Below are positions 7,844 to 21,108 of a stretch of 23,520 bases of DNA, one piece after another; position 1 is the stretch's first letter; each line of letters opens with the position of its first letter. Origin of the DNA: a virus (Duplodnaviria > Heunggongvirae > Uroviricota > Caudoviricetes); the IMG/VR virus record IMGVR_UViG_3300035698_035307, positions 1-23,520 of that record; one strand, written 5' to 3'. Under the pieces are notes generated by a model that saw nothing but the letters and a program-made list of their open reading frames with translations, was not told the DNA's origin and did not search any database. A program made the position numbers and the translations under genes.

Positions 7844-8800
7844 TTATGTGCCTATAATAAAACGATTATTAGTATTTTGAATTGTCTTCATGTCTAAATC
7901 ACTAGCAAAGTTACCAAGTCTGTGCATGGTATCTTCTGACATTTCTTTATCGTAAAAATCGTTATAAATACTGTGATACAACTTAACCGAAGCATCATAC
8001 GGTAATCCTGGTTGTGAATTGATTTCGATAATATACATTGCACCATCTTCATCTTTCATTAAATCTAATGCATAAATATCCACTTTACTGAAATTCTCAC
8101 GAACCTCTTTTAATATTTCTTTAAATTCATCAGGTATGTAATCTAATACAACTTTAGTATAGCCAAATTTCATAGCTTCGTCAGTTCCACCAGTACCTTC
8201 TTTTGCTTTCTTATTAAGTGCTTCTCTTTTCATGAACAACAATGGGTGTTCTTTAAAGAGTATTAATCTAAATTCTTCATCTATTTTAATCTTCTCAGAG
8301 AATACTTCAAACTCGTCTTTGTTTTCTCTTAATTCTTCTTTTAACTTAAAACTTTGAATACCTATTCCAGAATGGTTATTATCTGGTTTAGCAATGATTG
8401 GAAAACTAAGATTCTCTAATGCATCTTCTTTAGAAAATACTGTTTTAGGAACAAATTTACTTTTCTCCATTGTCATATGAAAATTCCGTTTACTAGAGAC
8501 AGATTTAACATCGTCTGGCTTATTGTAAACATTCTCTAATGGTATTAACTTATTTTCGATTAAGTACCTGCTAATGTCATTATTGTAATTAATAACAGGG
8601 TATTTTTGATTTATCTGATATGATAATTTCTTTTCAGTAAGTGGTAGCATAAAATTCTCTGTAGCATACTCCTTATAAGAGATATCAGTCCCTTTATTAG
8701 TATTGTCATATACTAAAAGTGCTTTAAATAATTCACCAAACTCTTCTTTTATAAATTGAGTGTAGCCTTTTACTTTTACGAAATTACTTTTTATACCCAT
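7844..8800 (-). CDS. ATP-grasp ligase (RimK/glutathione synthetase-like)
   Basis: VPKTVF, FPIIAKPDNNHSGIGI, EFRLILF, YALDLM, IIEINSQPG; N-terminal VKGYTQFIKEE leader. Confidence 0.88.
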   Translation of the reverse strand: MGIKSNFVKVKGYTQFIKEEFGELFKALLVYDNTNKGTDISYKEYATENFMLPLTEKKLSYQINQKYPVINYNNDISRYLIENKLIPLENVYNKPDDVKSVSSKRNFHMTMEKSKFVPKTVFSKEDALENLSFPIIAKPDNNHSGIGIQSFKLKEELRENKDEFEVFSEKIKIDEEFRLILFKEHPLLFMKREALNKKAKEGTGGTDEAMKFGYTKVVLDYIPDEFKEILKEVRENFSKVDIYALDLMKDEDGAMYIIEINSQPGLPYDASVKLYHSIYNDFYDKEMSEDTMHRLGNFASDLDMKTIQNTNNRFIIGT

Positions 8801-9197: not shown

Positions 9198-10085
9198 TTA
9201 TTTTTTAGTTTCAAGAAACACTCCTAATGCACCTTTATAATCTTCCTGAGTTCCACCTTCTTTAATCAGGTTTTCCATCGTCTTGAAAAATGTTTTCGTA
9301 GTTTTTGGAAATATAATTTCTTTGTACTCGCCATATTCGAATAATGGTTCTTTCAACTCAAAATGAGGTGAAGATACATTTTCTTCATTTTCAATCTTAT
9401 CTGCAGCATCGAAATGTCTTTCATAGAAATGAATATTGTCAGCTGAATGAAAATACGTACCGAGTTTTAATTCTGGATAGTATGGGAGCAACCATAATCT
9501 CATTTGTTGTAATACAATTGAAAAGAATGGGGCATCATAACTTAAACCAAAGAACATATCATTTGAACGTATTGTCATCTTCATGTTCAGAGTGTCTTCT
9601 CTTATAAAGAAATTCAGATACATCGTGCATACAAAATCTTTGTTACCAACATATTGAAATTTAGGTTGATTTAAGAACGCTATCGCTTGACGAGTATTCT
9701 TATCACTTCTTAGTGAGTTCAAGCACCAATAAAGTTGGTCACCGAATAATAAGTCACCATAATTCGAATTAATTTCACCACCTTCATCTGTTAGGTTTCC
9801 CCAGAACTTAGAAAAATTTGAAATGTAATCTACTGTACGTTCTTTTTTCAAATACCAGGCAAGTTCACCTGCTAAGTATTTCCAATTAAATGGACGTTCT
9901 TTAAAATCAAGTAATACCTTCGTAGGATTAAGTGGCATCGTATGCATATACAATTCCTTCACCTTTTGCCCCCTCGGCGCACTCTCATAACCATCATTCT
10001 TTATCTTACTTATAAGACTCTGGAACTCATGATTAATATCTTGCTTATGTTCTTTCTCGCTTAAATAGTTTGGTATTTTTGTCAT
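9198..10085 (-). CDS. Thymidylate synthase-fold enzyme, dCMP hydroxymethylase-like (T4 gp42 family)
   Basis: GEINSNYG, DKNTRQA, DFVCT (catalytic Cys), RSNDMFFGLSYD (Asp at the cytosine-specificity position), HFYERHF. Confidence 0.85.
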   Translation of the reverse strand: MTKIPNYLSEKEHKQDINHEFQSLISKIKNDGYESAPRGQKVKELYMHTMPLNPTKVLLDFKERPFNWKYLAGELAWYLKKERTVDYISNFSKFWGNLTDEGGEINSNYGDLLFGDQLYWCLNSLRSDKNTRQAIAFLNQPKFQYVGNKDFVCTMYLNFFIREDTLNMKMTIRSNDMFFGLSYDAPFFSIVLQQMRLWLLPYYPELKLGTYFHSADNIHFYERHFDAADKIENEENVSSPHFELKEPLFEYGEYKEIIFPKTTKTFFKTMENLIKEGGTQEDYKGALGVFLETKK

Positions 10086-10090
10086 TGCTC

Positions 10091-10951
10091 TTAATTATTT
10101 TTCAAAATTAGTTCCTTAAGTTCGGATTCAAACTTATAGAGTTTTAACAATGTCTCGTTCCTTTGTTTCATTAATTCTTTGAAGTTTTCAGTAGGAAGTG
10201 TACTCTTCAAATATAATGGAAATGTATTAACACATAGATAGTTCAGGTAATCAGTAACTAAGTCCTTCCAGATGATTCCTTTAATATTACTATGTTCTTT
10301 GTAAGTTTCGAAGAACTTCTCAATTAATGCAAAACTAAAATCTAATTCTTCAATGTCAAGCATATCTGATACGAATGACATGATTTCTATACTGATAAAA
10401 TCAAATGCTGCAAAATCAAAATCAATCAAAGTATACTTATCACCGTCCCATAAAATATTATGCTTACGAAAATCTCGATGTAATGCAATTTTAAGTTGTT
10501 TCTCATTGATACCTTTGATATCTTTTTGAATCTTCTTTCTGATACTTAAATCTCGTTTCAATGCGACTTTATTATTTACAGCTTCTTCCCAAGCCATTAA
10601 ATCATCGTACATTAATTCTTTATGAGGTAAGTCAATTGTATCACCTTCTTTCCAACAATGATTATGAATCTTAGCCATGTTCTCAGCTATAATTGAAACA
10701 GAAGTTACACCTAAGTTCCATTCACATTCTTTAACAACCTCATATCGACATTCAATTATCTCAGGGTCTGTATTAGCAGGATGGCCATAAATTCCTTTAT
10801 TAATTTCGAATCCATTTAGATTGTCAATGTTGTAAAATAATCTGGTTTGAAATATACCAACTCTGTAATCATATTTGCTCTTAGGCATATACTTAATAAA
10901 GACATCATCTCGTATTTCAGTACTGCTAGTGTTACCGCCGCTTTTATTCAT
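10091..10951 (-). CDS. APH/choline-kinase-like phosphotransferase
   Basis: MAKIH, LHRDFRKHNILW (HxDxxxxN) and LIDFD motifs. Confidence 0.85.
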   Translation of the reverse strand: MNKSGGNTSSTEIRDDVFIKYMPKSKYDYRVGIFQTRLFYNIDNLNGFEINKGIYGHPANTDPEIIECRYEVVKECEWNLGVTSVSIIAENMAKIHNHCWKEGDTIDLPHKELMYDDLMAWEEAVNNKVALKRDLSIRKKIQKDIKGINEKQLKIALHRDFRKHNILWDGDKYTLIDFDFAAFDFISIEIMSFVSDMLDIEELDFSFALIEKFFETYKEHSNIKGIIWKDLVTDYLNYLCVNTFPLYLKSTLPTENFKELMKQRNETLLKLYKFESELKELILKNN

Positions 10952-11915
10952 CTTTGTTGTAAATTTTTAGAAAGTCGTGTTCAATTGCATTGTCATTTGC
11001 TTTTGCCATTGTGGCCGTATAAAGAATTAAAGCCCACTTATAAAAGTATTCTGTTTTAAAATACGTTCTGTCAGGTTTATATAAATCTTTGTAAGTAGTT
11101 ATCGTACCACCATCGATATCCTCATGTTTACCAGCTTTCATAAATTCATCGACATAATGATATAAGATTCCATTTTCTTGAACCCATTCCTTATGTGTTA
11201 ATTCAAATGGCATTGGATGATACGTATGATTAGGGTCGAAGTCTTGTGACCAGGTAGGTTTACCACTTTTGTCACAATAATAATGCATACTAACTGTCTT
11301 GTATAGAAAGTGTCCCATTGTTAATTCAGGGTAAAATTCTGTAAGCCAACCTGTCATCATTTCTTGAAGTGTTGTAAATAAAATCACATCGTTTGCCCAT
11401 CCCATTGAAAGTGCAGTTCCTCTTGTTTCAAGAGTCATATGTAATTTATTATCTCGTATGATAAAGTGACAGTATATTAAACAAGGGTAGTGAACTTTGG
11501 GTCTTCTACTACCAAAAGATATTACTGCCTTTCTACTGTTCTTATCATCTCTGAGTACGTTTCTTATTTTGAGTAGTGACCATCTACTATTTCCTTGGCG
11601 ATTTTCATTGCCAAAGAACATGATATTGTCTTCAAACCCCATTGTTTTTTTGACCATTTCCCTTGAATGCATAACCCTCGGTTGGTTTTCATTAAAGATG
11701 TCAAAAAGTTCTTGATAAATGAAAGGCATATTTAAGCCTTTGATAGGTATGATTTTATCACGAGGATTTTTAATTAGTACAGAAGCATTCATAACTTCTT
11801 TAGTCCATTCTTTCCTGGCTTCTACTAATTCACCCTGGTCATCAATTAATTGTGCGAAGTACTCATATGCATCTCTTGCATTTTGTACTTCTGCATACTT
11901 CATATTATAATCCAT
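10944..11915 (-). CDS. Divergent thymidylate synthase-fold enzyme
   Basis: TKEVMNASVLIKNP, DKNSRKAVI, YPCL, FIIRDNKLHMT, TRGTALSMGWAND, GHFLYKTVSMHYY. Confidence 0.85.
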   Translation of the reverse strand: MDYNMKYAEVQNARDAYEYFAQLIDDQGELVEARKEWTKEVMNASVLIKNPRDKIIPIKGLNMPFIYQELFDIFNENQPRVMHSREMVKKTMGFEDNIMFFGNENRQGNSRWSLLKIRNVLRDDKNSRKAVISFGSRRPKVHYPCLIYCHFIIRDNKLHMTLETRGTALSMGWANDVILFTTLQEMMTGWLTEFYPELTMGHFLYKTVSMHYYCDKSGKPTWSQDFDPNHTYHPMPFELTHKEWVQENGILYHYVDEFMKAGKHEDIDGGTITTYKDLYKPDRTYFKTEYFYKWALILYTATMAKANDNAIEHDFLKIYNKDE

Positions 11916-11920
11916 AAATT

Positions 11921-12178
11921 CTATTTAAAAATTAAATTTGCTAAACCAACCAGAATCATTATTCCAATTACAATGCAAAAGAAAGCTCCTATTAAACCTA
12001 ATATGAAACCCCATCCAATCCAGAGAGGTGATGTAACCCACCACCATGACCAATTAGCTACCTGACCGACTTCACCTAATTTCATTACTAAGAATATAAT
12101 AAAAATGATAGTACTTAATTTCATACCATTGCCGGCTGTTTTTTGTACTGTTTTGTTTTTTAGTATGTTAGTTTTCAT
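11921..12178 (-). CDS. Small two-TM membrane protein (WSWWWV.SPLW phage family)
   Basis: IFLVMKLG..V.NWSWWWVTSPLWI pattern and hydrophobicity. Confidence 0.8.
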   Translation of the reverse strand: MKTNILKNKTVQKTAGNGMKLSTIIFIIFLVMKLGEVGQVANWSWWWVTSPLWIGWGFILGLIGAFFCIVIGIMILVGLANLIFK

Positions 12179-12215
12179 GTTATAAATTTAAGAAATTAGT
12201 TCGACATAATAAAGT

Positions 12216-12857
12216 TTATTTGAATATCTCATAAAGGTGATGGTCAGTTGCGTATCCTTTAGCTACTGCGAATTTCTTTTCAACTAATTTACCCATCATG
12301 TTAAACCTTTCTGAGCCAGCATCTTCATGTAATGCAATTAATATACCAGTCGAAGTCATGCTTCGTCCCATTGCTTCATCAAAATCTTTTTCTTTTTTGG
12401 TTTTCTTCTGTGTAACTTTACTGTACAGCGTAATTAACATGTCATTTGCAGCATCACCTTCAATAGTTTTATATTTGACCATGCCAACTTTAGAAGCTCT
12501 TTCTTTAACTTCTGAATGTGTAAGTGTTTCTGGTTTTTTTGAACGTTTCTTCTTTTGCATGGACACTTTGTCTAAGCCTTTGTCCATGTTACGTTCTTTT
12601 TTATTCTTTTTCTGCTTGGGCTTGGACACTTTGTCCACTTTGTCCACTTTGTCCACCTTTTTAGTAGGTTTATCTTTCTTTCTGGACACTTTGTCCACTT
12701 TAGTGTCCACTTTGTCTTCAGTAACTTTATTTTTATGCTTCTTCTTGGGCTTCTTCTCAACACTCGGTGTTTCAAACAAAGGTGTAAATCTTTTTTTCTT
12801 TCCGAAGAATTTCTCTTTTTCTTCAGGAGTCATATCACCCACTGATTTTCTTGCCAT
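12216..12857 (-). CDS. Lys-rich hypothetical protein with VDKV repeats in a central linker
   Basis: Globular-looking C-terminus, A-rich leader, co-directional with neighbours. Confidence 0.75.
   Translation of the reverse strand: MARKSVGDMTPEEKEKFFGKKKRFTPLFETPSVEKKPKKKHKNKVTEDKVDTKVDKVSRKKDKPTKKVDKVDKVDKVSKPKQKKNKKERNMDKGLDKVSMQKKKRSKKPETLTHSEVKERASKVGMVKYKTIEGDAANDMLITLYSKVTQKKTKKEKDFDEAMGRSMTSTGILIALHEDAGSERFNMMGKLVEKKFAVAKGYATDHHLYEIFK
12558..12717. repeat. Array of TGGACA-CTT-TGTC(C/T)A palindromes and 9-bp CTTTGTCCA direct repeats
   Basis: TGGACA at 12560, 12623, 12683; three tandem CTTTGTCCA at 12629-12655; T-tracts between units. Confidence 0.85.
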
Positions 12858-12908
12858 AATTATATTGTTTGTATCAAAAGTAATACATTAAAACGCAACA
12901 TAAAAGTT

Positions 12909-13244
12909 TTATCTGTCATCTCCCGAACCTCTTTCAGTTCCTCTGCTAACTCTACCTGCTAATTTTTCATTGTTTAAGTTTGCAATATCTTCAAGCGTAT
13001 AACCTAATTTACCGGCAAGTACTGAAAGATACCAAAGAGTATCGCCAAGTTCATTGCCAATTGCTTTCTTTGTAGTAGGTGTCAATTCGCCTTTGTCATC
13101 TCTGAAAAGTTTCTTGACCTTTCCTGCTACCTCTCCTGCCTCCTCAGACAGTCCAATTGATAAATATGTAAATGGATGGATATGTTCCCCTCCTGTAAAG
13201 AATGCATTCTCTAATGCACTCTCCTGATAATCATTCATCGTCAT
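12909..13244 (-). CDS. mazG: MazG-like nucleoside triphosphate pyrophosphohydrolase
   Basis: GLSEEAGEVAGKVKK, NELGDTLWYL, N.EKL..R and GSGDDR tail. Confidence 0.92.
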   Translation of the reverse strand: MTMNDYQESALENAFFTGGEHIHPFTYLSIGLSEEAGEVAGKVKKLFRDDKGELTPTTKKAIGNELGDTLWYLSVLAGKLGYTLEDIANLNNEKLAGRVSRGTERGSGDDR

Positions 13245-13617
13245 CTTCTATTCCTTTTTTAATTGTCATTAATACTGTATGTTTATCGATAGACATCTTT
13301 GTAATAATCTTATAAAGTGCTCTCAGTTCCTGTTCATTTGTTAATGTACAGACTGTTGTTTCGATAGGATTTACTCCTTGTTGGATAGTTATAAAGAATC
13401 CATTATAAGCAATGTACTCACCATTTTCACCGCGGACATAATTGTATCTAAATCTATAAACCTTTTGGCTCATAACAAAATGCAATCCCCCTAAACCATA
13501 TTTCTTGAATATGGCTAGGGTTAATTCTGTTTGGGGGTGATTCTGAGCTTCATGTTTTTGCTCAGTTATTATGCTACGACTTTTTCTTTTAATGTATTCG
13601 TCTCTTGCTTTACTCAT
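13231..13617 (-). CDS. Hypothetical protein
   Basis: Overlaps both neighbours in a translationally coupled arrangement. Confidence 0.7.
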   Translation of the reverse strand: MSKARDEYIKRKSRSIITEQKHEAQNHPQTELTLAIFKKYGLGGLHFVMSQKVYRFRYNYVRGENGEYIAYNGFFITIQQGVNPIETTVCTLTNEQELRALYKIITKMSIDKHTVLMTIKKGIEDDDE

Positions 13618-14194
13618 TTTTAGCTTTTTTAAATGGCCACTTTAATTTGCTGCCATCAGTCTTACTGTAAACTATCTTATCAGGTTTGCTTACTACAGCT
13701 TCCTTAAGCTTCTTTGCGTATTTCTTACCAGTTCCTGGTTTTAAGTATGCAACTGTACAGTGAGCATGATAGTCCGGGTAATCCGTTGTATGAGGGAACT
13801 CAGCTAATGTTTCATTCATTTTGTTTAAATCTTTTGAATTAACATCAAATTTCAGAACATCGAAGTCATCATTTTCAAACAACGAAAGTCTTTGCATTGA
13901 TACGATTGGGTCACTAAATTCATGTGCCATCATTGCCTTTTTGATATCATCATCATCATTGTCTTCGTGTAAACCATATAAAACAGTTACATGAGGTTCA
14001 TCTTCTCTACCATAATCTCCGTCCTTTTCATAAACATCTTCGTCATCAATTGATTCTTGTAAGTCAGCCCAATTCTTTTCGTCAACGTTTAAATATAACA
14101 TAACACAACCGTAATCATGTGCAGTACCTGATTTCTCTTCTACTTTATCATCTTCGATAAATTGTTCAAATGTTTTTACATGTAATCTTTCCAT
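13610..14194 (-). CDS. 2H phosphoesterase, Acb1/T4 gp57B-like
   Basis: PHVTVLY and DYPDYHAHCTVAY HxT motifs; N-terminal KTFEQFIE leader. Confidence 0.85.
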   Translation of the reverse strand: MERLHVKTFEQFIEDDKVEEKSGTAHDYGCVMLYLNVDEKNWADLQESIDDEDVYEKDGDYGREDEPHVTVLYGLHEDNDDDDIKKAMMAHEFSDPIVSMQRLSLFENDDFDVLKFDVNSKDLNKMNETLAEFPHTTDYPDYHAHCTVAYLKPGTGKKYAKKLKEAVVSKPDKIVYSKTDGSKLKWPFKKAKNE

Positions 14195-14206
14195 AATTTA
14201 ATTTTT

Positions 14207-14752
14207 TTATTCGTAATATCTATAAAATGAGTTAACAACTTTTCTTTTTGTTTTAGAACCATCATATATTACTGCAACAGATTTTACTTTAGAACCGTTA
14301 GCTATAAAAAAGCTTTCAATTTTCCTTGCAGTACCACCTGAGAAGTAAGAATCATCTACAAATACAAATGATTTCTTTTTGACATCAAAATCTTCAGGCT
14401 TATAAGATTCAACACCTTTACCGAGTGTTAGCATCTTTCCATTAAATGTAACGAATCCTTTGCATTTAAAAGCCTTCTTCTTATAAAGCTTCATTAATGT
14501 ATCACCAAATCCTCCAGATGACGCAATATATTCATTTTCAAATGGTTTTAAAAGTGCTATAATCATTTTCTTATTTAATACATTTTTGATTTGGTCATCA
14601 AGTGCATCAAAAAATGGTTTACCACCTTTATGTTTTACTAACAGTTTATCTATAAGTTCTTCTAAGTTCTTGTAAATAGAATCGGGCGGATTAAGGCCGC
14701 CCGGTTTTTCTGTTATAAATTCTTCGAATGTTTTTAATTGTATCTTTTCCAC
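14207..14752 (-). CDS. Type I phosphoribosyltransferase-fold protein
   Basis: FVFVDDSYFSGGT PRPP-binding loop; GTG start overlapping the upstream TAG; KTFEEFITE leader. Confidence 0.8.
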   Translation of the reverse strand: MEKIQLKTFEEFITEKPGGLNPPDSIYKNLEELIDKLLVKHKGGKPFFDALDDQIKNVLNKKMIIALLKPFENEYIASSGGFGDTLMKLYKKKAFKCKGFVTFNGKMLTLGKGVESYKPEDFDVKKKSFVFVDDSYFSGGTARKIESFFIANGSKVKSVAVIYDGSKTKRKVVNSFYRYYE

Positions 14753-15861
14753 TAAATTAAGCTTTTTTCAAATTTAAAATATATCTTTGTGTAATATATA
14801 TCAGCTTTTTCTTTTTGGCCAACAAATACGCTTGCATATCTTAATCTGATTGCTATTTTAGGTGCCATAGTCCCTTCAGCTATTGTCGATAATGATTGAG
14901 CTCCCATATATGGAAGGTACATTCCAGGTTCATTATTCTTTGGCATTCTTGAGACTGTAATCGAATTATCATCCCATCTTTTCATTGGGTCAACGAAGAT
15001 TGTGATTCCATTAAAAGTACCTGCTATATAAGGTTCTCCACCTGTAACCATTGATACTTTAGCTTCAGAAGGTAATACAAACCCTTCTATGTCTTGTAGA
15101 ATTGTACCAATCTGACCATTAACTACAGCTACATTACCTGCGCCTCTTCTTGTTGTTATCGCGAGCATATTACATGCACTTAATATAGCAGTGATGATTC
15201 TACGATGAGCTTCTTGAATTGTCATATCTGATGTAATGACATAAGCTTTTTGGTAAACACCCTTGAAATATTTAGGTAACCATTTTTCTAAGAAAGATAA
15301 ATTTTTGTGAATCCACTTAGTTCTTTTCTCTTTCTTTAAATCTTTATCAGTCCATGACTTACGATAAGATATTTCACCATAGTTGTCTATTTTAGCTAAG
15401 ACATTTTTCCAAATGGCCATTTTAGACTCATTAATAAGAACACCTTCAGTTTGCGTAACTGCATCTATACCTATTGATTTTAGATGTTCAATCATTTCTC
15501 TTGTGATAGTTGCAGAAACTTGGTAAGTTTGTTGTTCTATTGCTTGATTAAATAACTGTAAGCCGATTGTCTTCATTGGCACTGATTCACCCCTTGTAAG
15601 AGGTTGTTCAAAACCAGTAACAAAATCTGTTTCTTTTTCATCAGATGTTGGTTCCATTTCAACAAAATCTAAATAAGACATTAAACCTATAGGTAATTCA
15701 ACCTTTTGAACATTTGTAAAATATTTCAGAGCATCATCTTCAAATATCTTCTGATTCATTACAGCGATGAAAGCATCTGTCTTCGCTTGCTGAACAGGGT
15801 CCACTTCCTGCATCTGTAGATGTGGGGGTAAATTGTTTAAATTAAAATTTTCCATATACAT
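14752..15861 (-). CDS. T4 gp23-like major capsid protein paralog (short, divergent)
   Basis: TREMIEHL, TRRGAGNVAVV, IFVDP, PYM, TMAPKIAIRLRYA resemble gp23-family motifs. Confidence 0.8.
   Translation of the reverse strand: MYMENFNLNNLPPHLQMQEVDPVQQAKTDAFIAVMNQKIFEDDALKYFTNVQKVELPIGLMSYLDFVEMEPTSDEKETDFVTGFEQPLTRGESVPMKTIGLQLFNQAIEQQTYQVSATITREMIEHLKSIGIDAVTQTEGVLINESKMAIWKNVLAKIDNYGEISYRKSWTDKDLKKEKRTKWIHKNLSFLEKWLPKYFKGVYQKAYVITSDMTIQEAHRRIITAILSACNMLAITTRRGAGNVAVVNGQIGTILQDIEGFVLPSEAKVSMVTGGEPYIAGTFNGITIFVDPMKRWDDNSITVSRMPKNNEPGMYLPYMGAQSLSTIAEGTMAPKIAIRLRYASVFVGQKEKADIYYTKIYFKFEKSLI
14795..14802 (-). promoter_or_regulatory. GATATATA putative late promoter for PRTase and 2H genes
   Basis: About 43 nt upstream of GTG 14752. 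Confidence 0.5.
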
Positions 15862-15878
15862 TTATTATGTTGTTGATG

Positions 15879-15886
15879 TATATATC
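15879..15886 (-). promoter_or_regulatory. GATATATA putative late promoter for the capsid paralog
   Basis: Intergenic, about 18 nt upstream of ATG 15861, downstream of a terminator. Confidence 0.6.
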
Positions 15887-15942
15887 AGTACTTTTGGAAG
15901 TAATGTCTGCCAGTTGCGTTATTTCAGTACAATCTGAAAAAG

Positions 15943-15973
15943 AAAAAGGGTAAACATCTTATAGTGCTTACCC
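15943..15973 (-). terminator. Intrinsic terminator closing the 19471-15984 operon
   Basis: Minus strand GGGTAAGCA-loop-TGTTTACCC-TTTTT. Confidence 0.75.
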
Positions 15974-15983
15974 CTAATCATTT

Positions 15984-16172
15984 TTACTCCGTATGAGCTT
16001 TTTTGACAATCATTACATCTTCTGGTAATGGATTGTCTTTAAATTTTGCTAGAAAAGCTTTCAAAGTTTTTTTAGCTTTACTAGGCGATAGCTTACCTAC
16101 AGGAACAATGAAAGTTCTTCTAACTTCTCCTTGTCCTGTTTTACACCAATAGTCTTTCTCTAATCTTGTCAT
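15984..16172 (-). CDS. 62-aa protein resembling the T4 gp20-type portal clip region
   Basis: RRTFIVPVGKLSPSKAKKTL....KFK resembles the gp20-family RRxFYIDVGxxPxxKAxxxL pattern; ATGA coupling to the upstream gene. Confidence 0.65.
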   Translation of the reverse strand: MTRLEKDYWCKTGQGEVRRTFIVPVGKLSPSKAKKTLKAFLAKFKDNPLPEDVMIVKKAHTE

Positions 16173-17020
16173 ACTAATTCTCTTTTTAACGGTAATGTCA
16201 TGCAGGCAAACCCTCCTGCCATTTTTCTAATTTCACTCATTTTACAAGTATGAATTTTCATACCTTGATGACATTCTAACATTGCTTTAACTTGTGGGCA
16301 ATCATCAGCCATTATAATTTCCCTTGGACCAATCACTAAAATATTAGTGGCATAGTTCTTACTGACCTCGTCAAACTCAGACAGTGTAATCACATTCTTA
16401 TATCCTAATGTTTCTTGACTCAGTTCTGACCTTATGAGTAACGTATCAGCATCCAGAATCATATGAGCACCTAATATATGTTGAGGTATTCCTTCAGGTA
16501 AAGCTTCGACTGTTTTAAAATTAATATGAGGATATAATTGTTGTAATGTTTCTGCTACCTTTGGAGAAGTTCTATTACCTACAGATAAAATTACTTCATC
16601 TGGTTTAGTTCTTAACATATCAGCTCCTTCAAATGTAATATCTTCACTGAACTCAATTAATTTCCCAGCGTATTGTTCTTTTCTTAAATACTTAATAAGA
16701 TTAAGTTCTTCACCTTTTCTTACATCATATCTTAAATTCCCAAGTATAATTGAATCATCTAAAACTGCAGCTACATCTCTCATATAGATTGCATTAGCGT
16801 GATATAAATAATCAGGAGTATGCATATCAGTATGTACTTCAATACCTAATTTGTTTAAAAGGTCCCATAATGCTGAAACTTCTTCTAATACTACGTCATA
16901 GTTTGGTTGAAATTCATACATCGCCTCATCAGCTGTCATCATTTCTAGTTCACCTCTTCGAGGTATATGTAAGAAAACTGATTGTAGTTTTCCATATTCT
17001 GAGTTATATCCTACTTCCAT
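16169..17020 (-). CDS. Amidinotransferase/arginine deiminase/DDAH (pentein) family enzyme
   Basis: NSEYGKLQSV, NAIYMRD, RKGE, FEGAD, RTS, QHIL, GGFACMTLPL (catalytic Cys). Confidence 0.9.
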   Translation of the reverse strand: MEVGYNSEYGKLQSVFLHIPRRGELEMMTADEAMYEFQPNYDVVLEEVSALWDLLNKLGIEVHTDMHTPDYLYHANAIYMRDVAAVLDDSIILGNLRYDVRKGEELNLIKYLRKEQYAGKLIEFSEDITFEGADMLRTKPDEVILSVGNRTSPKVAETLQQLYPHINFKTVEALPEGIPQHILGAHMILDADTLLIRSELSQETLGYKNVITLSEFDEVSKNYATNILVIGPREIIMADDCPQVKAMLECHQGMKIHTCKMSEIRKMAGGFACMTLPLKRELV

Positions 17021-17481
17021 TATGAGTATTTTATTAATGTTATTAATTCCTCAAATTCTTCAACTTGTGGTATATTATATTTACTGCAAACTATGTCAAT
17101 GTTTCCTTTTCTCCAGAAACCTTCTGGGCAATAAATAACTAGCTTACCTGATTTAGCGTATAAGCCAAACTCTAACAGTGAGATAGGTGCTATACTATCT
17201 TTTGTCAAAACCATTATAATTTTATCAGCTAATTCTAAATGTTCTAATTCCCAATTAACTTGTTCATTAAATTTTGGATTATCAATTGATTGTTCCCATG
17301 TATCATCCCATTCATCTCTACGTGGATTGTAAAGTATAACAGGAAAGTCTTTTACAGCTTCTGTAATCTTTAATTGCCAATCTTCGGCTTTACCCATATC
17401 AATTGACCCTGCAAGAAAGATACTTTTATATCCTTCTACTTTTGCAGCATATCCGGGTGGTTTTATTACAATTGTTTTCAT
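17020..17481 (-). CDS. Nucleoside 2-deoxyribosyltransferase-like protein
   Basis: IFLAGSI, DWQ, NPRR, QVNWE..L..AD, APISLLEFGL. Confidence 0.9.
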   Translation of the reverse strand: MKTIVIKPPGYAAKVEGYKSIFLAGSIDMGKAEDWQLKITEAVKDFPVILYNPRRDEWDDTWEQSIDNPKFNEQVNWELEHLELADKIIMVLTKDSIAPISLLEFGLYAKSGKLVIYCPEGFWRKGNIDIVCSKYNIPQVEEFEELITLIKYS

Positions 17482-17482
17482 T

Positions 17483-17728
17483 TTAAAATCTTGCTGCGCC
17501 TTGTACAGGCAGTTCTTCAGGTGTTCCTTTACTATTTCTAACTATTTTGAAGCATTTCTTGAATGTAACTTTGTCCATATTTACAAGATTGCTAGGGTGT
17601 ATAGTATGAATGAGAATGTCATTAGTTTCTTTAGCTATACGAAACATTACATAATTATTTAGCTTTAATCCAGGCAGTCGATATCTGCTGGGGAGTATCT
17701 TTTCATATGTAGCATTATAGTATCTCAT
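17483..17728 (-). CDS. Hypothetical protein
   Basis: 1-bp gaps to both neighbours within the operon. Confidence 0.7.
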   Translation of the reverse strand: MRYYNATYEKILPSRYRLPGLKLNNYVMFRIAKETNDILIHTIHPSNLVNMDKVTFKKCFKIVRNSKGTPEELPVQGAARF

Positions 17729-17729
17729 A

Positions 17730-18956
17730 CTAAATCCATTTATCTGTGTTCATTGAATATCCTAATCTATACATCATATCTTGAACATGTGGTTCTTTTG
17801 CTAACCAATTCATCTCATGTTCTCTTTTCTTCCACCTGTATAAACCTGGCTCATCTGTTGCCATCGTTACTGGCATAACTCCAATTTCTACGTGAGGTAT
17901 TCCAATATAGTCACATATATCATCTGCTATTTCTTGAGGACTTATTAAGAAGTCTTCGAACTTAACTCTCATTGTATGAACCTTACTTTCAAGAATTGAA
18001 TTATGTGCAGTGTACCATTGATTTAAACAAACTTGTTCAAGTGTAGAATTTGTATATTGTTTCCAATTAGCAGGTAAGTCAAATTTCCACCATTTCTTTC
18101 CAAAAGCTTTAACATCACTATAACCTTTAATATTGAGTTCTAAATCTTGTGATTCCATATTATGTGCAAAGAAACCATTATCAGATAACCAACCGTCCAT
18201 TAAACCGTTTGTTGTTTGTGCAAATCCTCTACTTAAGTGGATATACTTTATCTCTGCATTTGGGAATAGGTTCTCGAATAATCCAATTCTATAACAGTCT
18301 TGAGGTGTCTTAAATAAAAGCGGATGTGTAGCTGCGTCTTCTTCAGTAAAACTTCTTTTCTTAGAAGGTATTACGAAAGGTGGTTCCTCAATCTTAATCT
18401 GTTCAGTAAATAATTGTTTGTCTTTTGCAAATAAATCATAATAACCTCTCTTATCTGGCATGAAACTATTAATGAATCGCTTAGTAGATTCTTCATAGTT
18501 ATCACTGTTACCGTAAGCTTCGTGAACTCTCTGTTCTATTAATTCATGAAGTTCTGGCTTCATTTCAGGATATTGATACAGCATTCTTTTCTGCCAGTCA
18601 ATTGTAGTTCTTCTTACATCAATGAATGGAATATTAATACCCATATCTGAAAACATAATATCAAGAAGCTTTTGTTTATCATTAACTTCAGTAAATCCGT
18701 CAGACTCTGTCCAAGGAAATGCATTCTTTGTTAAGATGTAATAAGGTTCTTCTTCACCAGAAAGATAAGCAATATCATCACTCTTAGACAATATTGATTT
18801 CATTAATGTTGAACCAGAACGAGAAGCTGTAAGGATTACTACAATCTTTTTTACTTTCTCATTTAGATTCCCAGTTGGCTTTATAAAACCTTCTCCAAAT
18901 AATTTATCATTGACATTGTCAATAGCGTTCTCTACTCTTTCTGTGTATTTGTTCAT
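17730..18956 (-). CDS. PAPS-dependent sulfotransferase-family protein
   Basis: ILTASRSGSTLM (5'-PSB loop), FKTP, FPNAEIKYIHLSR (3'-PB), VKFEDFL.SP, YRLGY. Confidence 0.85.
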   Translation of the reverse strand: MNKYTERVENAIDNVNDKLFGEGFIKPTGNLNEKVKKIVVILTASRSGSTLMKSILSKSDDIAYLSGEEEPYYILTKNAFPWTESDGFTEVNDKQKLLDIMFSDMGINIPFIDVRRTTIDWQKRMLYQYPEMKPELHELIEQRVHEAYGNSDNYEESTKRFINSFMPDKRGYYDLFAKDKQLFTEQIKIEEPPFVIPSKKRSFTEEDAATHPLLFKTPQDCYRIGLFENLFPNAEIKYIHLSRGFAQTTNGLMDGWLSDNGFFAHNMESQDLELNIKGYSDVKAFGKKWWKFDLPANWKQYTNSTLEQVCLNQWYTAHNSILESKVHTMRVKFEDFLISPQEIADDICDYIGIPHVEIGVMPVTMATDEPGLYRWKKREHEMNWLAKEPHVQDMMYRLGYSMNTDKWI

Positions 18957-19471
18957 GCTTTCATTCTTTCGTTTACAAAATCGATTACCTGTTGGATATG
19001 TTCGTCTTCGATATGAAAATTGTCTGGATTAATTACAACAGGACATGTTGCAAAACTAGATAATACCTTCATATACTTATCCACATGTGTTTTAAAGTCT
19101 TTACCTTCTTTACTACTCCGCTTGGCTGCTAGTGCTGGCCAATTTTCTTCAGTAGTTGCTATAAATACTGCGCATTTATGAATGTGACTTTTAGATACTC
19201 GTAAAATTTCTTTACGATAACCTTCGTCTTCAGAATATGCAGCATCTGTTAACCCTCTATCCCAGAGAATTACTCTTTTATAATCATTTATCTGGTCTAA
19301 TCTTTCGATATTATTATGCATCCAGAAATTATAATCTTGCCATCTCGATTGCATTCCTATATTAATAGCACCTGCCCCCTTGAATCTTATCCATTCAGGT
19401 TTTTGTTCTAATAATTTATCAATGAGATATGTTTTGCCAACTGTTGACAAACCTTCTAAAAAAACTATCAT
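18953..19471 (-). CDS. P-loop nucleoside monophosphate kinase (TMPK/dNK-like)
   Basis: IVFLEGLSTVGKT Walker A and ILWDRG DR motif. Confidence 0.82.
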   Translation of the reverse strand: MIVFLEGLSTVGKTYLIDKLLEQKPEWIRFKGAGAINIGMQSRWQDYNFWMHNNIERLDQINDYKRVILWDRGLTDAAYSEDEGYRKEILRVSKSHIHKCAVFIATTEENWPALAAKRSSKEGKDFKTHVDKYMKVLSSFATCPVVINPDNFHIEDEHIQQVIDFVNERMKA

Positions 19472-19487
19472 ATGTTATTTGTTTTGT

Positions 19488-19516
19488 ATTATATGGGCTA
19501 TAGCCCTGATGGTTTC
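19488..19516 (-). promoter_or_regulatory. GAAAC-N18-TATAAT promoter with palindrome GGGCTATAGCCC (19495-19506) in the spacer
   Basis: Between a terminator and the kinase ATG. Confidence 0.6.
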
Positions 19517-19525
19517 ATTAATCAT

Positions 19526-19560
19526 AAAAAAAGCCACCTATTCAGTTAAGTGGCTTTTTT
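19526..19560 (-). terminator. Intrinsic terminator, potentially bidirectional
   Basis: A7-GCCAC-loop-GTGGC-T6 downstream of ORF 19572-20315. Confidence 0.85.
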
Positions 19561-19571
19561 ATGATGACTAC

Positions 19572-20315
19572 TTAGTCTTTTTTAACGTCTTTAGCTTCTT
19601 TCAAGATTTCTCCTGCTTTCGCTTCAGCTTCGTCAATTTTCTTTGCAGCTTCCTTTGTCTTCTCTACATCTTCTACTTTAACACCAGATGCTTCAATGTC
19701 AAGTTCTTGATTACGAGCGTCAAGTTCTGTAAGTCTCGTGTGAATATCTCTAAGAATTTGATTGTCATCAGCAACCATTTTCATTGATTCAGATACTGTC
19801 TCACCTATAATTGTCACTAAACGAACGTGAGTTCTAGCTTCGAAGAAGCCTGTACCAGCTCTTTGTGCAAGTGAGTTATAAAGATGTGCGATATCTTTAC
19901 CAAGAATCCAGATTTTACCATCTGTATCAATACCTTCTTTCTTTGCATTCTTTAATTCACTGTAAAGTGATACAAGTAATGCGGCATTTCTGTGCTGCCA
20001 AGGTAAATCTTTTTCTACGAACTTAAGAAGTTCTTTAAGATAACCATCGTTTTCAATTGTGATAGGATATTCAGTTTCAGCTAACTGACTTGTTTGTTGA
20101 GTAGCAATTGCTTCTAACTCTTTAAGTTCAGCTAAAATAGCTTCTTTATCCATTTCTTTAACATCTGAACGAGCTTCAATGTTAAGAATATCTTCTTTGT
20201 CATCACCTAAAAGAACTTTCTTTCTTTCGATTTTGTATTCAGGTGCTGTTTCTGTTACTTCGCCTGCAGTTTTAACTTCAGATGCGTCAACAACTTTTGC
20301 TTCTTCTTTTGCCAT
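19572..20315 (-). CDS. Hypothetical acidic coiled-coil protein
   Basis: 247-aa ORF with A-rich leader and downstream terminator. Confidence 0.8.
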   Translation of the reverse strand: MAKEEAKVVDASEVKTAGEVTETAPEYKIERKKVLLGDDKEDILNIEARSDVKEMDKEAILAELKELEAIATQQTSQLAETEYPITIENDGYLKELLKFVEKDLPWQHRNAALLVSLYSELKNAKKEGIDTDGKIWILGKDIAHLYNSLAQRAGTGFFEARTHVRLVTIIGETVSESMKMVADDNQILRDIHTRLTELDARNQELDIEASGVKVEDVEKTKEAAKKIDEAEAKAGEILKEAKDVKKD

Positions 20316-20343
20316 AATTTATTGTATTTTTCTTTAAATTTGT

Positions 20344-20535
20344 TTATTCAGTTGGTCTTTTTGGTAATTCAATATAATGAGTTACATCTTCTAAAACCGT
20401 AGCATAATTTGTTCTATAATGTTTACCATCATAAAAACCTAAAAACGTGCCGTAGATTTTTGTTAATAATATTAACTGACTCATATGAGGTTCTTCATGA
20501 ACTTCAGGTTCTGTTTCTATTGAAATATATTCAAT
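20344..20535 (-). CDS. DUF551-like small protein missed by the ORF track, apparent ATT start
   Basis: Reads (I/M)EYISIETEPE...FLGFYDGKHY...EDVTHYIELPKRPTE-stop, like DUF551 MEWISV..LP...VTHWxxLPxP; promoter 20553-20581 immediately upstream. Confidence 0.6.
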   Translation of the reverse strand: MEYISIETEPEVHEEPHMSQLILLTKIYGTFLGFYDGKHYRTNYATVLEDVTHYIELPKRPTE

Positions 20536-20552
20536 GTGTTTGTATTTGTAGT

Positions 20553-20581
20553 ATTATAGTATTCTATGTATTGTTTGTTTC
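20553..20581 (-). promoter_or_regulatory. GAAAC-N18-TATAAT promoter
   Basis: tGAAACaaac...acTATAAT, nearly the same as the 862-889 element. Confidence 0.6.
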
Positions 20582-20589
20582 ATACCGAT

Positions 20590-21108
20590 TTACAGAAATT
20601 CAGCCAATTCACTGGATTTTATCCTTAAATCAAAATCAGTAAAGTTGTCAAAGTCTTTTCTGTCAGCTCCCATACGTCTTTCCAGACTGTCACCTGGCAT
20701 AGTTCTTTGTGCAAGTCTTTCTCTTCTTATTGCTTCTGGAATGTCCATAAAGATAATAAAAGAATTTTTTCTATCTTCTGGTAATAATTTGCTAATTCCA
20801 GATGGCGTCATAATAAAGGTATCACACATCGACATTTGTTCTTTAGCTGTTCCATAATACCAGCCGTTAAATTCTACGTATTCATACCAAAAATCTTCTT
20901 TGATTCTCTTTTGAAACTCTTTAACACTAAGAAAATAATAATCAATTCCTTCAACTTCACCTTCCCTTGCAGGGCGAGTAGTATAAGATACAGCATGGCT
21001 AAATCCTTTCTTTACAAATGCGTCTTTTAAATAGTCTTTTCCACCGGCTGCATGGCCGCAAAATATCATACGTGCTCTTGGAAATAAATAAGTTTGCTTT
21101 CCTGTCAT
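20590..21108 (-). CDS. gmk: Guanylate kinase
   Basis: GHAAGGKD P-loop; VSYTTRPAREGEVEGIDYYF; EYVEFNGWYYGT. Confidence 0.92.
   Translation of the reverse strand: MTGKQTYLFPRARMIFCGHAAGGKDYLKDAFVKKGFSHAVSYTTRPAREGEVEGIDYYFLSVKEFQKRIKEDFWYEYVEFNGWYYGTAKEQMSMCDTFIMTPSGISKLLPEDRKNSFIIFMDIPEAIRRERLAQRTMPGDSLERRMGADRKDFDNFTDFDLRIKSSELAEFL

Follow-up and report, generated by a model that had tools for sequence, protein, structure and literature searches.

Described systems closest to the locus

In phage T4, 5-hydroxymethylcytosine (5hmC) is produced and decorated by gp42, the dNMP kinase gp1, the dCTPase gp56 and glucosyltransferases. Thymidine hypermodification via 5-hmdU proceeds through the kinase 5-HMUDK, aGPT-Pplase, amino-acid addition and tailoring (PMC8989533), 5-carbamoyloxymethylcytosine is made by a TS homologue together with a NodU-type carbamoyltransferase (PMC8670742), and flavin-dependent 5-hydroxy-dCMP synthases are represented by RB69 gp48, DLP3 gp80 and HY126 AfhB (PMC13326640). 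In nucleocidin and ascamycin biosynthesis, the pair NucN/NucO (AcmN/AcmO) is needed for sulfamoyl formation (PMC10946740, PMC4257720).

Here we analysed a window of 23,520 nucleotides from the IMG/VR virus record IMGVR_UViG_3300035698_035307 and found that this uncultured marine-type phage carries a conserved and mobile set of six enzymes, TS1, APHK, TS2, ADI, SulfoT and K2, encoded, like all window genes named here, on the minus strand at the listed ORF coordinates (Table 1). We hold with moderate confidence that this cassette yields a C5-substituted deoxycytidine nucleotide that would replace or supplement dC in virion DNA, by a chemistry that we infer; the modified cytosine is most likely one so far undescribed. 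An earlier note had placed ten genes of such a pathway here, and Pfam and PHROG searches recovered all of them at the coordinates given, with the PRTase below the Pfam threshold. Its statement that no known phage base is made with this enzyme set agrees with the literature searched, in which, as in the records searched, neither a paper nor a cultured phage with the six-gene cassette was found; with the kinase or the sulfotransferase as query, tblastn found nothing in 50,697 phage records.

The cassette resembles the T4 pathway in the gp42 signature of TS1, in a dedicated small dNMP-kinase-like gene and, in the related locus L018, in its position within a replication/nucleotide module adjoining a dUTPase/DCD-like gene, but it lacks a glycosyltransferase and adds a folate-independent TS2, APHK, SulfoT and an ADI-fold protein. 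The absence of a glycosyltransferase, also remarked on earlier, was borne out among the 37 window ORFs scanned, which are part of a 151.5-kb record estimated by CheckV as ~54% complete, so that genes such as glycosyltransferases may be among the missing part. With the 5-hmdU pathway the cassette would share a logic in which a hydroxymethyl pyrimidine is phosphorylated, the phosphate is displaced by an N-nucleophile and tailoring varies by lineage; whereas that pathway modifies uracil-derived bases in DNA after replication with a P-loop kinase, the cassette appears to involve a cytosine base (Asp177 in both TS folds), an APH-fold kinase and, as candidate substitution enzyme, TS2, which should act before replication. 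The 5-carbamoyloxymethylcytosine system likewise uses a phage TS homologue with Asp177 to provide 5hmC for O-decoration, and in one relative (L001) a carbamoyltransferase gene lies 5 kb away from the cassette, but the window has none and the described system has no TS2, APHK, SulfoT or ADI.

Table 1. Features of the locus and the matches on which their assignments are based
Feature	Coordinates	Strand	Evidence and remarks
ATP-grasp ligase, downstream of TS1	7844..8800	-	Pfam Dala_Dala_lig_C 4e-8 and other ATP-grasp families; accessory
TS1	9198..10085	-	Pfam Thymidylat_synt 8e-21; core cassette
APHK (APH/choline-kinase-family small-molecule kinase)	10091..10951	-	Pfam APH 3e-7; core cassette
TS2	10944..11915	-	No Pfam match; PHROG thymidylate synthase 3e-15; core cassette
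MazG	12909-13244	-	Pfam 1e-7
PRTase-like, weak	14207-14752	-	Pribosyltran E 1e-3
gp23-like capsid paralogue	14752-15861	-	Pfam; inside the stretch
62-aa ORF, closes the K2...ADI operon	15984..16172	-	Weak Portal_T4 match 0.003
ADI/DDAH/amidinotransferase-fold protein, guanidino-modifying type	16169..17020	-	Pfam ADI 2e-16, DDAH 1e-10; core cassette
NDT-like (Nuc_deoxyri_tr2)	17020-17481	-	Pfam 2e-34; PDB 4MCJ 1e-30; accessory
NDT-like and 81-aa ORF, between SulfoT and ADI	17020..17728	-	Accessory
SulfoT, 408 aa	17730..18956	-	Pfam Sulfotransfer_3 1.5e-11; core cassette
K2, P-loop (d)NMP-kinase-like	18953..19471	-	GxxGKT and WDR motifs; core cassette
U247 (no family) and guanylate kinase	19572..21108	-	Upstream neighbours kept within the window's clade
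Guanylate kinase	20590-21108	-	2e-17

TS1 and the two kinases

In E. coli ThyA numbering, TS1 has C146, E58, W80, Y94 and D169 together with L143->D and N177->D, and thus fits the published residue signature of 5hmdCMP synthases (PMC13326640). Its top PDB sequence match is T4 gp42 (dCMP hydroxymethylase, 5e-18), and TS1 is predicted to be a 5hmdCMP synthase of the dCMP hydroxymethylase type, as had been proposed. The APH-type kinase was also correctly recognised: the closest Atlas clusters of APHK are all APH, and alignment to choline kinase shows intact HxDxxxxN and DFD motifs. The APHK ORF shares 8 nt with TS2, ends 5 nt short of TS1, and comes after TS2 in every related locus of sufficient length.

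The K2 ORF overlaps SulfoT by 4 nt, and its GxxGK[T/S] and WDR motifs are invariant. Matches of K2 to named kinases are weak (PHROG thymidylate kinase, 2e-5; profiles of SPbeta YorR and guanylate kinase), and its match to APS kinase is no better than those to SPbeta YorR or guanylate kinase; no APS_kinase Pfam match was found in the phage genome record (~54% complete). K2 may act as a dNMP kinase or may instead provide the sulfate donor.

The SulfoT/ADI dyad

SulfoT has a conserved 5'-PSB-type SRxGS loop and R243, its family comprises 313 representative clusters at E<=1e-30, and its AF2 model (pLDDT 80; top folds 4GBM, 4GOX and TPST) is sulfotransferase-like with a CurM/OLS/TPST-like fold. In the NucN/NucO system, an amidinotransferase-fold protein adjoins a ~444-aa protein with a weak Sulfotransfer_3 match, whose nearest folds, CurM ST (4GBM) and OLS ST (4GOX), are the top two of the SulfoT model; SulfoT thus resembles NucO/AcmO, and the SulfoT/ADI pair NucO/NucN, by size, Pfam pattern and fold neighbours rather than by direct sequence alignment. 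The ADI-fold protein has DDAH as its top PDB match and invariant C273 (in a C-terminal GxxxC[M/A/Q/C]T motif), H181, D82 and E131, and it stands beside SulfoT in all relatives. A natural SulfoT-ADI fusion (P0160), the presence of the dyad in bacterial loci, and an arginase-family enzyme in place of the ADI-fold partner in 78 of the best 80 bacterial loci suggest guanidino chemistry for the pair. In bacteria, the SulfoT family occurs with a methyltransferase and arginase and without nucleotide or TS genes, which suggests that SulfoT was recruited as a module and is neither specific for DNA nor inherently linked to it. In favour of the proposed cassette function, the bacterial locus L027 matches in gene content the set required for ascamycin/nucleocidin sulfamoylation, sharing a NucK-like sulfotransferase, B12 radical SAM enzymes, methyltransferases and sulfatases.

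The likeness to NucO/NucN also bears on the possibility that the cassette product is an antimetabolite, a free nucleoside or nucleotide that never enters DNA. It might be a 5-hydroxymethyl-cytosine nucleoside with a sulfamoyl group or other tailoring (compare nucleocidin/ascamycin, mildiomycin and bacimethrin), with which the phage would disable a host enzyme or its competitors. Antibiotic pathways often include APH-family kinases and ATP-grasp ligases, 5'-O-sulfamoyl nucleoside antibiotics are the sole described setting of a NucO/NucN-like pair, and MilA, the closest structure to TS2, belongs to a nucleoside-antibiotic pathway; the window's SulfoT-ADI operon also contains the NDT-like gene, of nucleotide N-glycosidase type, and a SLOG/YAcAr-like gene lies near the cassette in some relatives. 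We nevertheless regard an antimetabolite as unlikely, because conservation of the cassette does not extend to NDT, and the NucK-type sulfotransferase, radical SAM enzymes and sulfatase essential for sulfamoylation are absent from the phage loci, whereas the cassette always includes a dNMP-kinase-like gene, TS1 bears a signature used for DNA precursors, and the L018 cassette is flanked by RNR and a dUTPase-like gene, then PolB.

Conservation and transfer of the cassette

Across 20 related contigs, metagenomic and viral, only K2, SulfoT, ADI, TS2, APHK and TS1 always co-occurred. Where TS2 loci had enough flank, ADI adjoined TS2 or lay a few short ORFs away, SulfoT and K2 were upstream and APHK and TS1 downstream of TS2, and the cassette ORFs mostly overlapped or nearly abutted. 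The sulfotransferase and amidinotransferase genes were linked to the TS pair, as the earlier note had required for its pathway, on every TS2 contig with enough flank, and this, like the TS1 signature, belongs to the part of that interpretation that stands; conservation of MazG, PRTase, NDT and guanylate kinase, which it had counted among the pathway members, does not. Guanylate kinase is a neighbour in the window's clade only, and neither it nor U247 is beside the cassette in L018/L019.

In L018/L019 the genes run RNR, TS1, K2, SulfoT, ADI, TS2, APHK, dUTPase/DCD-like and PolB, with the six genes contiguous between ribonucleotide reductase and the dUTPase-like gene, while PolB and dUTPase lie ~50 kb from the cassette in the window's genome. 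The cassette proteins of L018/L019 are 32-44% identical to those of the window, as against 24-26% for UvsX, DnaB and PolB, and the sequences indicate that the cassette has been transferred as a unit into a distinct phage backbone.

With two exceptions, the related loci come from a single syntenic phage clade, and inheritance of gene order could account for much of the linkage. Taken further, only TS1, K2 and guanylate kinase would serve DNA, giving plain 5hmC or 5mC, and TS2, APHK, SulfoT and ADI would be unrelated neighbours in inherited order that might serve arginine/sulfur metabolism or protein modification (Tyr sulfation, Arg deimination). Consistent with this, tyrosylprotein sulfotransferases are among the SulfoT fold neighbours, the bacterial SulfoT loci described above lack nucleotide genes, and the cultured phage RsoM2USA has TS1-like, DDAH-fold and T4-type beta-glucosyltransferase genes and no SulfoT. 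Such a division of labour appears improbable, however, since contiguity and overlapping ORFs survive the transfer to a backbone with such divergent replication proteins, no contig long enough to tell showed TS2 in the absence of the other five genes, and, although the inserts that split the cassette differ by lineage, its six genes are retained in their order.

TS2 and the proposed route

TS2, the second divergent TS-fold enzyme of the earlier list, has homologues in 29 clusters. R34, E69, R128-K129, C145, R165, D176 and H211 are invariant in 20 homologues and correspond to ThyA R21, E58, R126/127, C146, R166, N177->D and H207, so that the catalytic Cys, the phosphate-binding Arg and the cytosine-specific Asp are kept, while the folate contacts are lost (W80 and Y94 missing; A, E, S or D at position 169). 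AF2 modelling (pLDDT 87) gave a TS fold, with MilA as nearest structure (TM 0.62-0.68) and the flavin dCMP hydroxylase of phage HY126 next. By its sequence, TS2 is a new TS-fold branch, whose ligand is most likely a cytosine 5'-mononucleotide. It shares with the 5-hydroxy-dCMP synthases the TS fold, action on dCMP without folate (predicted for TS2), the loss of W80 and D169, and Asp177, but it has neither D169N nor L143E, its C-terminal extension resembles that of MilA, and it branches separately. That TS2 is itself such a flavin-dependent hydroxylase (compare RB69 gp48 and HY126 AfhB), yielding 5-hydroxy-dCMP for O-sulfation by SulfoT while TS1 and APHK serve a separate modification, is the least likely reading: aryl-type sulfate esters are chemically stable, the HY126 enzyme is the second-best structural neighbour, and TS2 and RB69 gp48 share the xYPC active-site motif as well as the two losses, but the diagnostic D169N is absent, L143 is His rather than Glu, Y94 is lost, TS2 is not closer to RB69 gp48 (hhalign E 1e-4) than to T4 gp42 (5e-4) or ThyA (2e-7), and the ADI-fold partner is left without explanation.

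In the preferred route to a C5-substituted deoxycytidine nucleotide, TS1 would convert dCMP to 5-hydroxymethyl-dCMP, as its gp42 residue signature suggests, and APHK may phosphorylate the 5-CH2OH group to create a leaving group. TS2, which on its residues would bind a cytosine 5'-mononucleotide and attack C6 through the conserved Cys without methylene-tetrahydrofolate, may then form an exocyclic methylene intermediate to which a nucleophile adds; since the mononucleotide phosphate-binding arginines are kept, this step would take place on the mononucleotide, before replication. SulfoT and the ADI-fold enzyme, probably acting jointly on a guanidino-type substrate, may draw on PAPS and on arginine or a similar guanidine to provide the nucleophile or to carry out a later tailoring step, giving a sulfamate-, N-sulfo- or guanidino/ureido-type substituent; K2 may then phosphorylate the completed dNMP and so make it available to the polymerase. 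The sulfate, phosphate, guanidino or amine group proposed earlier is likewise a candidate only. Because sulfate and sulfamate esters of the benzylic type would be chemically labile on C5-CH2, the final group is not readable from the enzyme list.

Insert and accessory genes

In the window, a lineage-specific insert divides the cassette into two blocks. The high-coordinate (upstream) part of the insert separating ADI from TS2 (11921..15861, minus strand) holds the gp23-like capsid paralogue, the weak PRTase-like gene, a 2H/Acb1-like phosphoesterase, a 128-aa ORF, MazG, a 213-aa ORF and an 85-aa membrane ORF, and a terminator scan placed a terminator-like hairpin (15975-15946) after the 62-aa ORF. 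Among the compared loci, these insert genes were found in L005/L006 only, as were the NDT-like gene and the 81-aa ORF, in place of which some relatives have the SLOG/YAcAr-like gene; MazG, PRTase, NDT and the 2H/Acb1-like gene are thus limited to the window and its closest kin. ADI directly abuts TS2 in L001, L012, L015, L016, L017 and L018/L019, and a short gap with other small ORFs (N6_N4 methyltransferase, SLOG/YAcAr-like) separates them in L003, L004, L007, L008, L013 and L014. The PRTase call is itself weak, since its Pribosyltran score of 18.7 bits lies below the cut-off of 26.3 and has no PDB support. An ATP-grasp ligase is present in L001, L002 and L005 and absent from L003, L007, L008, L012-L015 and L018; like the NDT-like, MazG, carbamoyltransferase, methyltransferase and glycosyltransferase genes, it is an addition of particular lineages. 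The window's own ATP-grasp ligase and the gp23-like capsid paralogue had been absent from the earlier list.

A six-gene cassette shared by distant phage lineages

The window lies at the start of an IMG/VR virus record of 151.5 kb (33% GC), spans 23.5 kb and has all of its genes on the minus strand. Pfam and PHROG scans of 37 ORFs in it confirmed the genes that the earlier note had read from the sequence, apart from a PRTase, an identity that was rejected on a sub-threshold Pfam match and no PDB match. The same scans found no glycosyltransferase domain among these ORFs, as the note had reported.

Features of the window, in order of position
Feature	Coordinates	Strand	Basis or match
HSP20	87-476	-	
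Peptidoglycan-binding amidase endolysin	919-1863	-	
PD-(D/E)XK nuclease	4878-5618	-	
Sigma-70-family gene and conserved 178-aa ORF	6597-7843	-	
ATP-grasp ligase, adjoining TS1 just beyond the range of the earlier note		-	
TS1, TS-fold	9198-10085	-	Pfam/PHROG
APHK, APH-family kinase	10091-10951	-	Pfam/PHROG
TS2, TS-like	10944-11915	-	No Pfam match; PHROG thymidylate synthase, 3e-15
MazG	12909-13244	-	Pfam/PHROG
2H phosphoesterase	13610-14194	-	2_5_RNA_ligase2 and anti-CBASS Acb1 (E ~1e-6 to 3e-7)
ORF listed earlier as PRTase	14207-14752	-	Pfam E 1e-3
gp23-like major-capsid paralogue, 369 aa	14752-15861	-	Pfam Gp23, 3e-21
62-aa ORF	15984-16172	-	Weak portal-like match
ADI, ADI/DDAH-fold	16169-17020	-	Pfam/PHROG
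NDT-like gene (Nuc_deoxyri_tr2)	17020-17481	-	Pfam/PHROG
SulfoT, Sulfotransfer_3 protein	17730-18956	-	Pfam/PHROG
K2, P-loop kinase	18953-19471	-	Pfam/PHROG
Guanylate kinase	20590-21108	-	Pfam/PHROG

Homologues of TS2, the second and divergent TS-fold protein, fell into 29 clusters in a 5.8-billion-protein collection, and their contigs were fetched; IMG/VR was added by an alignment-based scan, the only kind to give matches there, as scans with single sequences (TS2 alone, kinase alone) gave none. This provided 20 further TS2-family loci (L001-L008, L012-L022 and a 43-kb contig supplied with no DNA sequence), among which L020-L022 carry other TS homologues and lack the cassette. Mapping the window proteins onto the DNA-bearing loci revealed a constant block of K2 (a dNMP-kinase-like protein), SulfoT (a sulfotransferase-like protein of 408 aa), ADI, TS2, APHK and TS1 (a gp42-like TS homologue), with six of six genes present wherever the contig extends far enough and with ORFs mostly overlapping or a few bases apart. 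Two insertions interrupt the block in the window and in L005 and L006, its nearest relatives: the NDT gene and an 81-aa ORF lie between SulfoT and ADI, and the gp23-like, PRT-like and 2H genes, a 128-aa ORF, MazG, a 213-aa ORF and an 85-aa ORF lie between ADI and TS2, the same place being occupied in other lineages by an N6_N4 methyltransferase, a SLOG/YAcAr-like gene, a GIY-YIG nuclease or nothing. MazG, the PRT-like ORF and NDT, all taken as pathway members in the earlier note, are inserts of the window, L005 and L006 only, while the guanylate kinase, placed in the pathway by the same note, is a constant upstream neighbour, as is U247 (an ORF with no family and no informative fold neighbour), inside the window's clade only. 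The ATP-grasp gene occurs in three subclades only, and the sigma-70-family gene with its 178-aa ORF always follows the cassette in the window's clade. A promoter scan gave counts not above shuffled expectation.

In L018 (132 kb) and L019 (82 kb), two contigs from IMG/VR, the cassette sits in the middle of a replication and nucleotide module, in the order gp32, UvsX, 5'-3' exonuclease, DnaB, class II RNR, TS1, K2, SulfoT, ADI, TS2, APHK, dUTPase/DCD-like gene and PolB. In the genome of the window, the cassette is separated from PolB and the dUTPase by about 50 kb. The cassette proteins of these contigs are 32-44% identical to those of the window's genome, compared with 24-26% for UvsX, DnaB and PolB, and these identities together with the different PolB and dUTPase distance indicate that the six genes have either moved between distant lineages or persisted in them as a block. 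The earlier note, which proposed a cytosine hypermodification pathway involving sulfation and amidino chemistry, would have been refuted by a lack of linkage between the sulfotransferase and amidinotransferase genes and the TS pair in relatives. This linkage holds in the relatives, L018/L019 included, so the proposal withstands that check.

Candidate decorating enzymes near the cassette differ between relatives, which suggests that tailoring varies by lineage. A NodU-type carbamoyltransferase was observed in L001 (18231-19685), a glutamine-synthetase-like ligase and a GT4 "conflict-system" glycosyltransferase in L018 (15638-16720 and 19166-20650), and a GT29 sialyltransferase-like gene in L003 (20052-20630) and L007.

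TS1, TS2 and the two kinases

TS1 was aligned to E. coli ThyA, T4 gp42 and RB69 gp48, with residues given in ThyA numbering. It keeps the catalytic Cys146 and Glu58, its DFVCT and GELAWY segments align with DFMCT and RELEWY of T4, and it also has Trp80, Tyr94 and Arg166-Ser-Asn-Asp169, the folate Asp being retained; N177 is replaced by Asp (cytosine specificity) and L143 by Asp (water access), as seen in RSNDMFFGLSYD, with D three residues ahead of the Cys. By published criteria for dCMP hydroxymethylases (N177 to Asp, L143 to Asp or Glu, and D169 retained; PMC13326640, PMC8670742), TS1 bears, at the level of its residues, the signature of a 5hmdCMP synthase of the T4 gp42 type. Thymidylate synthase, dCMP methylase and 5-hydroxy-dCMP synthase were ruled out as identities by the residue signature. 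No ThyA or ThyX other than TS1 was found in the 151-kb record, whose completeness is estimated by CheckV at about 54%; the record also encodes a dCMP deaminase (136492-136803).

In TS2, residues invariant across 20 homologues map to ThyA R21, E58, R126/K127, C146, R166, Asp177 and H207, placing it in the TS superfamily by fold, catalytic Cys, the phosphate-binding R21/R126/R127/R166 set (R127 being Lys) and H207-x-Y209 (His207 invariant, Tyr at 209 in most homologues). With this invariant set, TS2 should bind a cytosine 5'-mononucleotide and attack C6. Of Y94 and the folate contacts W80, W83 and D169, W80 and Y94 are missing in 20/20 homologues and D169 is not conserved, being replaced in some by A, E or S; this loss and variability make a methylene-tetrahydrofolate co-substrate unlikely. 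The residue at position 143 is His. The AF2 model of TS2 (pLDDT 87) has MilA as its closest neighbour over the full length (TM 0.62-0.68), followed by the flavin-dependent dCMP hydroxylase of phage HY126 and then ordinary TS, and hhalign places TS2 roughly equidistant from RB69 gp48, T4 gp42 and ThyA. Judged from sequence, TS2 is a separate branch of the TS superfamily. Close kinship with the flavin-dependent 5hodCMP synthases was rejected, as the diagnostic D169N and L143E are lacking and hhalign scores are no nearer. The TS2 orthologue of L018 (10010-10768; 252 aa) has no counterpart of the helical, MilA-like extension at the C terminus and retains both Ser167 and Asp169, and may therefore stand nearer to the family's ancestral state.

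APHK contains the Brenner motif HxDxxxxN and the Mg-binding DFD of the APH/choline-kinase family, its neighbours being generic APH. The kinase beside the TS genes thus has an APH fold and is not of the 5-HMUDK type, a P-loop kinase paired with an aGPT-Pplase, and no window ORF was flagged as an aGPT-Pplase by the Pfam or PHROG scans. K2 contains a P-loop together with a WDR motif, and its matches to named kinases (SPbeta YorR, guanylate kinase, APS kinase) are all weak. A role as an APS kinase that supplies PAPS is conceivable but gains no support, since the APS kinase profile scores no better than guanylate kinase or YorR, and the genome has no APS_kinase Pfam match.

The SulfoT/ADI pair in phages and bacteria

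The closest folds to the SulfoT model (pLDDT 80) are those of CurM ST and OLS ST, both "activating" sulfotransferases, and of tyrosylprotein sulfotransferases; the 5'-phosphosulfate loop of SulfoT, SRSGST, aligns with SPRSGST of CurM, with R46, G48 and S49 conserved across 32 diverse members, and of the 3'-phosphate motif (Arg...Ser) R243 is invariant and the Ser spacing non-canonical. ADI has the pentein fold signature with an invariant C-terminal catalytic C273 and H181, and its GGFACMTLP aligns with GGVSCMSL of DDAH, so that it is a predicted member of the guanidino-modifying superfamily (ADI/DDAH/amidinotransferase), in which sequence does not separate hydrolase from transferase.

A profile search of 1.84 billion representatives returned 313 SulfoT clusters at E<=1e-30, including a natural SulfoT-ADI fusion, P0160 (766 aa; L026 2045-4345), which is encoded on a contig of an uncultured bacterium, after a conventional sulfotransferase of 344 aa. 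In another bacterial contig (L027, 2646-16035), two methyltransferases, two B12 radical-SAM enzymes and a conventional NucK-like sulfotransferase lie ahead of SulfoT-ADI, three sulfatases follow the pair, and the locus also encodes a metallo-beta-lactamase-fold protein; in a 4.7-Mb chromosome, the pair lies upstream of an NRPS module. Species-representative genomes contained 252 SulfoT loci, of which the best 80 (L028-L107), mostly from Oxalobacteraceae, have an arginase-family gene after SulfoT in 78/80, an MTS/PrmA-type methyltransferase before it in 76/80 and both in 73/80; no TS, APHK, K2 or ADI gene lies near SulfoT in these best 80 of 252. ADI-fold and arginase-fold enzymes are unrelated guanidino-cleaving folds, and their partnership with one sulfotransferase-like family suggests that a guanidino group takes part in the chemistry of the family. 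The three-gene set is carried by Massilia, Duganella, Undibacterium, Rugamonas and others and by some CPR/DPANN MAG contigs, its SulfoT homologues are the closest cellular kin of phage SulfoT (38-46% identity; examples in L045 9300-12045 and L028 9301-12021), and we know of no described function for it.

Assembly of the 5'-O-sulfamoyl group of nucleocidin and ascamycin requires NucK/AcmK (a conventional sulfotransferase), NucN/AcmN (an amidinotransferase) and NucO/AcmO (444 aa, with a weak Sulfotransfer_3 match only and an AlphaFold model closest to 4GBM and 4GOX), and likewise requires radical-SAM, methyltransferase and sulfatase genes; the roles of NucN/AcmN and NucO/AcmO are unsolved (PMC10946740, PMC4257720). 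Compared by published description, the phage pair resembles NucO/NucN in the size of the sulfotransferase-like protein (about 444 aa in the description), its weak Sulfotransfer_3 match, its CurM/OLS folds and the adjoining amidinotransferase-fold gene, and the two top fold matches of NucO are those of the SulfoT model. The likeness is a well-motivated analogy rather than a demonstrated orthology. A NucK-type sulfotransferase, radical SAM, sulfatase and methyltransferase are missing from all phage loci but present in L027, which has the same gene content as the ascamycin/nucleocidin sulfamoylation genes and may be a sulfamate natural-product cluster outside actinomycetes.

Proposed pathway and alternatives

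Block transfer or retention is the strongest argument that the six genes serve one nucleotide or DNA pathway. Sequence features favor steps in which TS1 would make 5hmdCMP, TS2 would process a cytosine mononucleotide via a Cys-C6 adduct and need no folate, and SulfoT and ADI would act jointly. We further infer that APHK would phosphorylate the 5-CH2OH, that TS2 would eliminate the phosphate to give an exocyclic methylene and then add a nucleophile, that the nucleophile or a later tailoring step would come from SulfoT/ADI using PAPS and arginine or a related compound, and that K2 would phosphorylate the product for incorporation. The identity of the final group is not derivable from sequence. 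We tentatively regard it as possible that the cassette equips cytosine C5 with a sulfur-oxyanion/sulfamoyl-type and/or guanidine-derived group. TS2 would then replace the leaving group of a 5-(phosphooxymethyl)pyrimidine nucleotide by a new nucleophile, and SulfoT/ADI would be a portable module that draws on PAPS and arginine to make or transfer an N-sulfo or sulfamate unit. The proposed mechanism shares its phosphorylate-and-displace logic with thymidine hypermodification (PMC8989533) but would operate on cytosine, at the nucleotide level and with unrelated enzymes.

The likeness of the pair to NucO/NucN raises the alternative of a free nucleoside antimetabolite resembling nucleocidin or mildiomycin, and the cassette could also comprise two unrelated functions kept together by synteny; the gene context in L018, the constant presence of a dNMP-kinase-like protein and the residue tests count against both, and we consider each of them unlikely. 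The same observations count against TS2, despite the HY126 enzyme among its model neighbours, being a dCMP hydroxylase feeding O-sulfation, a reading that we consider very unlikely.

The proposed C5 modification would represent a known kind of system, TS-based phage pyrimidine hypermodification, here with a new TS-fold branch and a recruited module. If it is correct, TS2 would be the first TS-fold enzyme shown to make such a leaving-group/nucleophile swap, and the SulfoT/ADI module would also account for the unsolved NucN/NucO step in sulfamate antibiotic biosynthesis. By hypermodifying their bases, phages overcome restriction and CRISPR defences, and such bases have yielded tools for epigenetic sequencing. 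To our knowledge, the characterised cytosine pathways all end in methyl, hydroxymethyl, hydroxy, glycosyl or carbamoyl groups, to which the cassette would add chemistry with sulfur, guanidine or both and a new reaction type for the TS fold. Its occurrence in ocean and other metagenomes, with Tara scaffold ERZ2783085 and IMG/VR 3300025133 among the sources, and its movement among distant phage lineages indicate that it is not a one-off, and it offers a compact, expressible six-gene system for studying a sulfotransferase-like/amidinotransferase-like pair that is unexplained in sulfamate natural products.

Our literature search among 8 million papers and preprints returned no work tying a sulfotransferase or an ADI/amidinotransferase-fold enzyme to phage TS homologues, and a 2021 jumbo-phage overview does not mention the gene set. 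No cultured carrier came to light in 50,697 phage records, which matched neither the complete window by megablast nor the kinase or the sulfotransferase by tblastn. A T9SS sorting domain in L007 hints weakly at Bacteroidota as hosts. Within INPHARED, TS1 has its closest relative (37% identity) in the cultured jumbo phage RsoM2USA of Ralstonia (MG752970; L009 6947-13554), which has a DDAH/ADI-fold gene 1.6 kb downstream of it and also a gene resembling T4 beta-glucosyltransferase, all of them with hypothetical annotations, making this phage a candidate for glucosyl-hmC plus an extra guanidino-enzyme step.

Additional genes of the window

The IMG/VR record is labelled a provirus, and the window genes are all phage-type. 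The 2H phosphoesterase is a candidate anti-defence gene degrading cyclic nucleotides. The gp23-like paralogue, which adjoins the 62-aa ORF, lies among nucleotide-metabolism genes, distant from any structural module, is kept in L005 and L006, and loosely links this phage to huge uncultured phages, Lak phages and Tenacibaculum phage PTm1.
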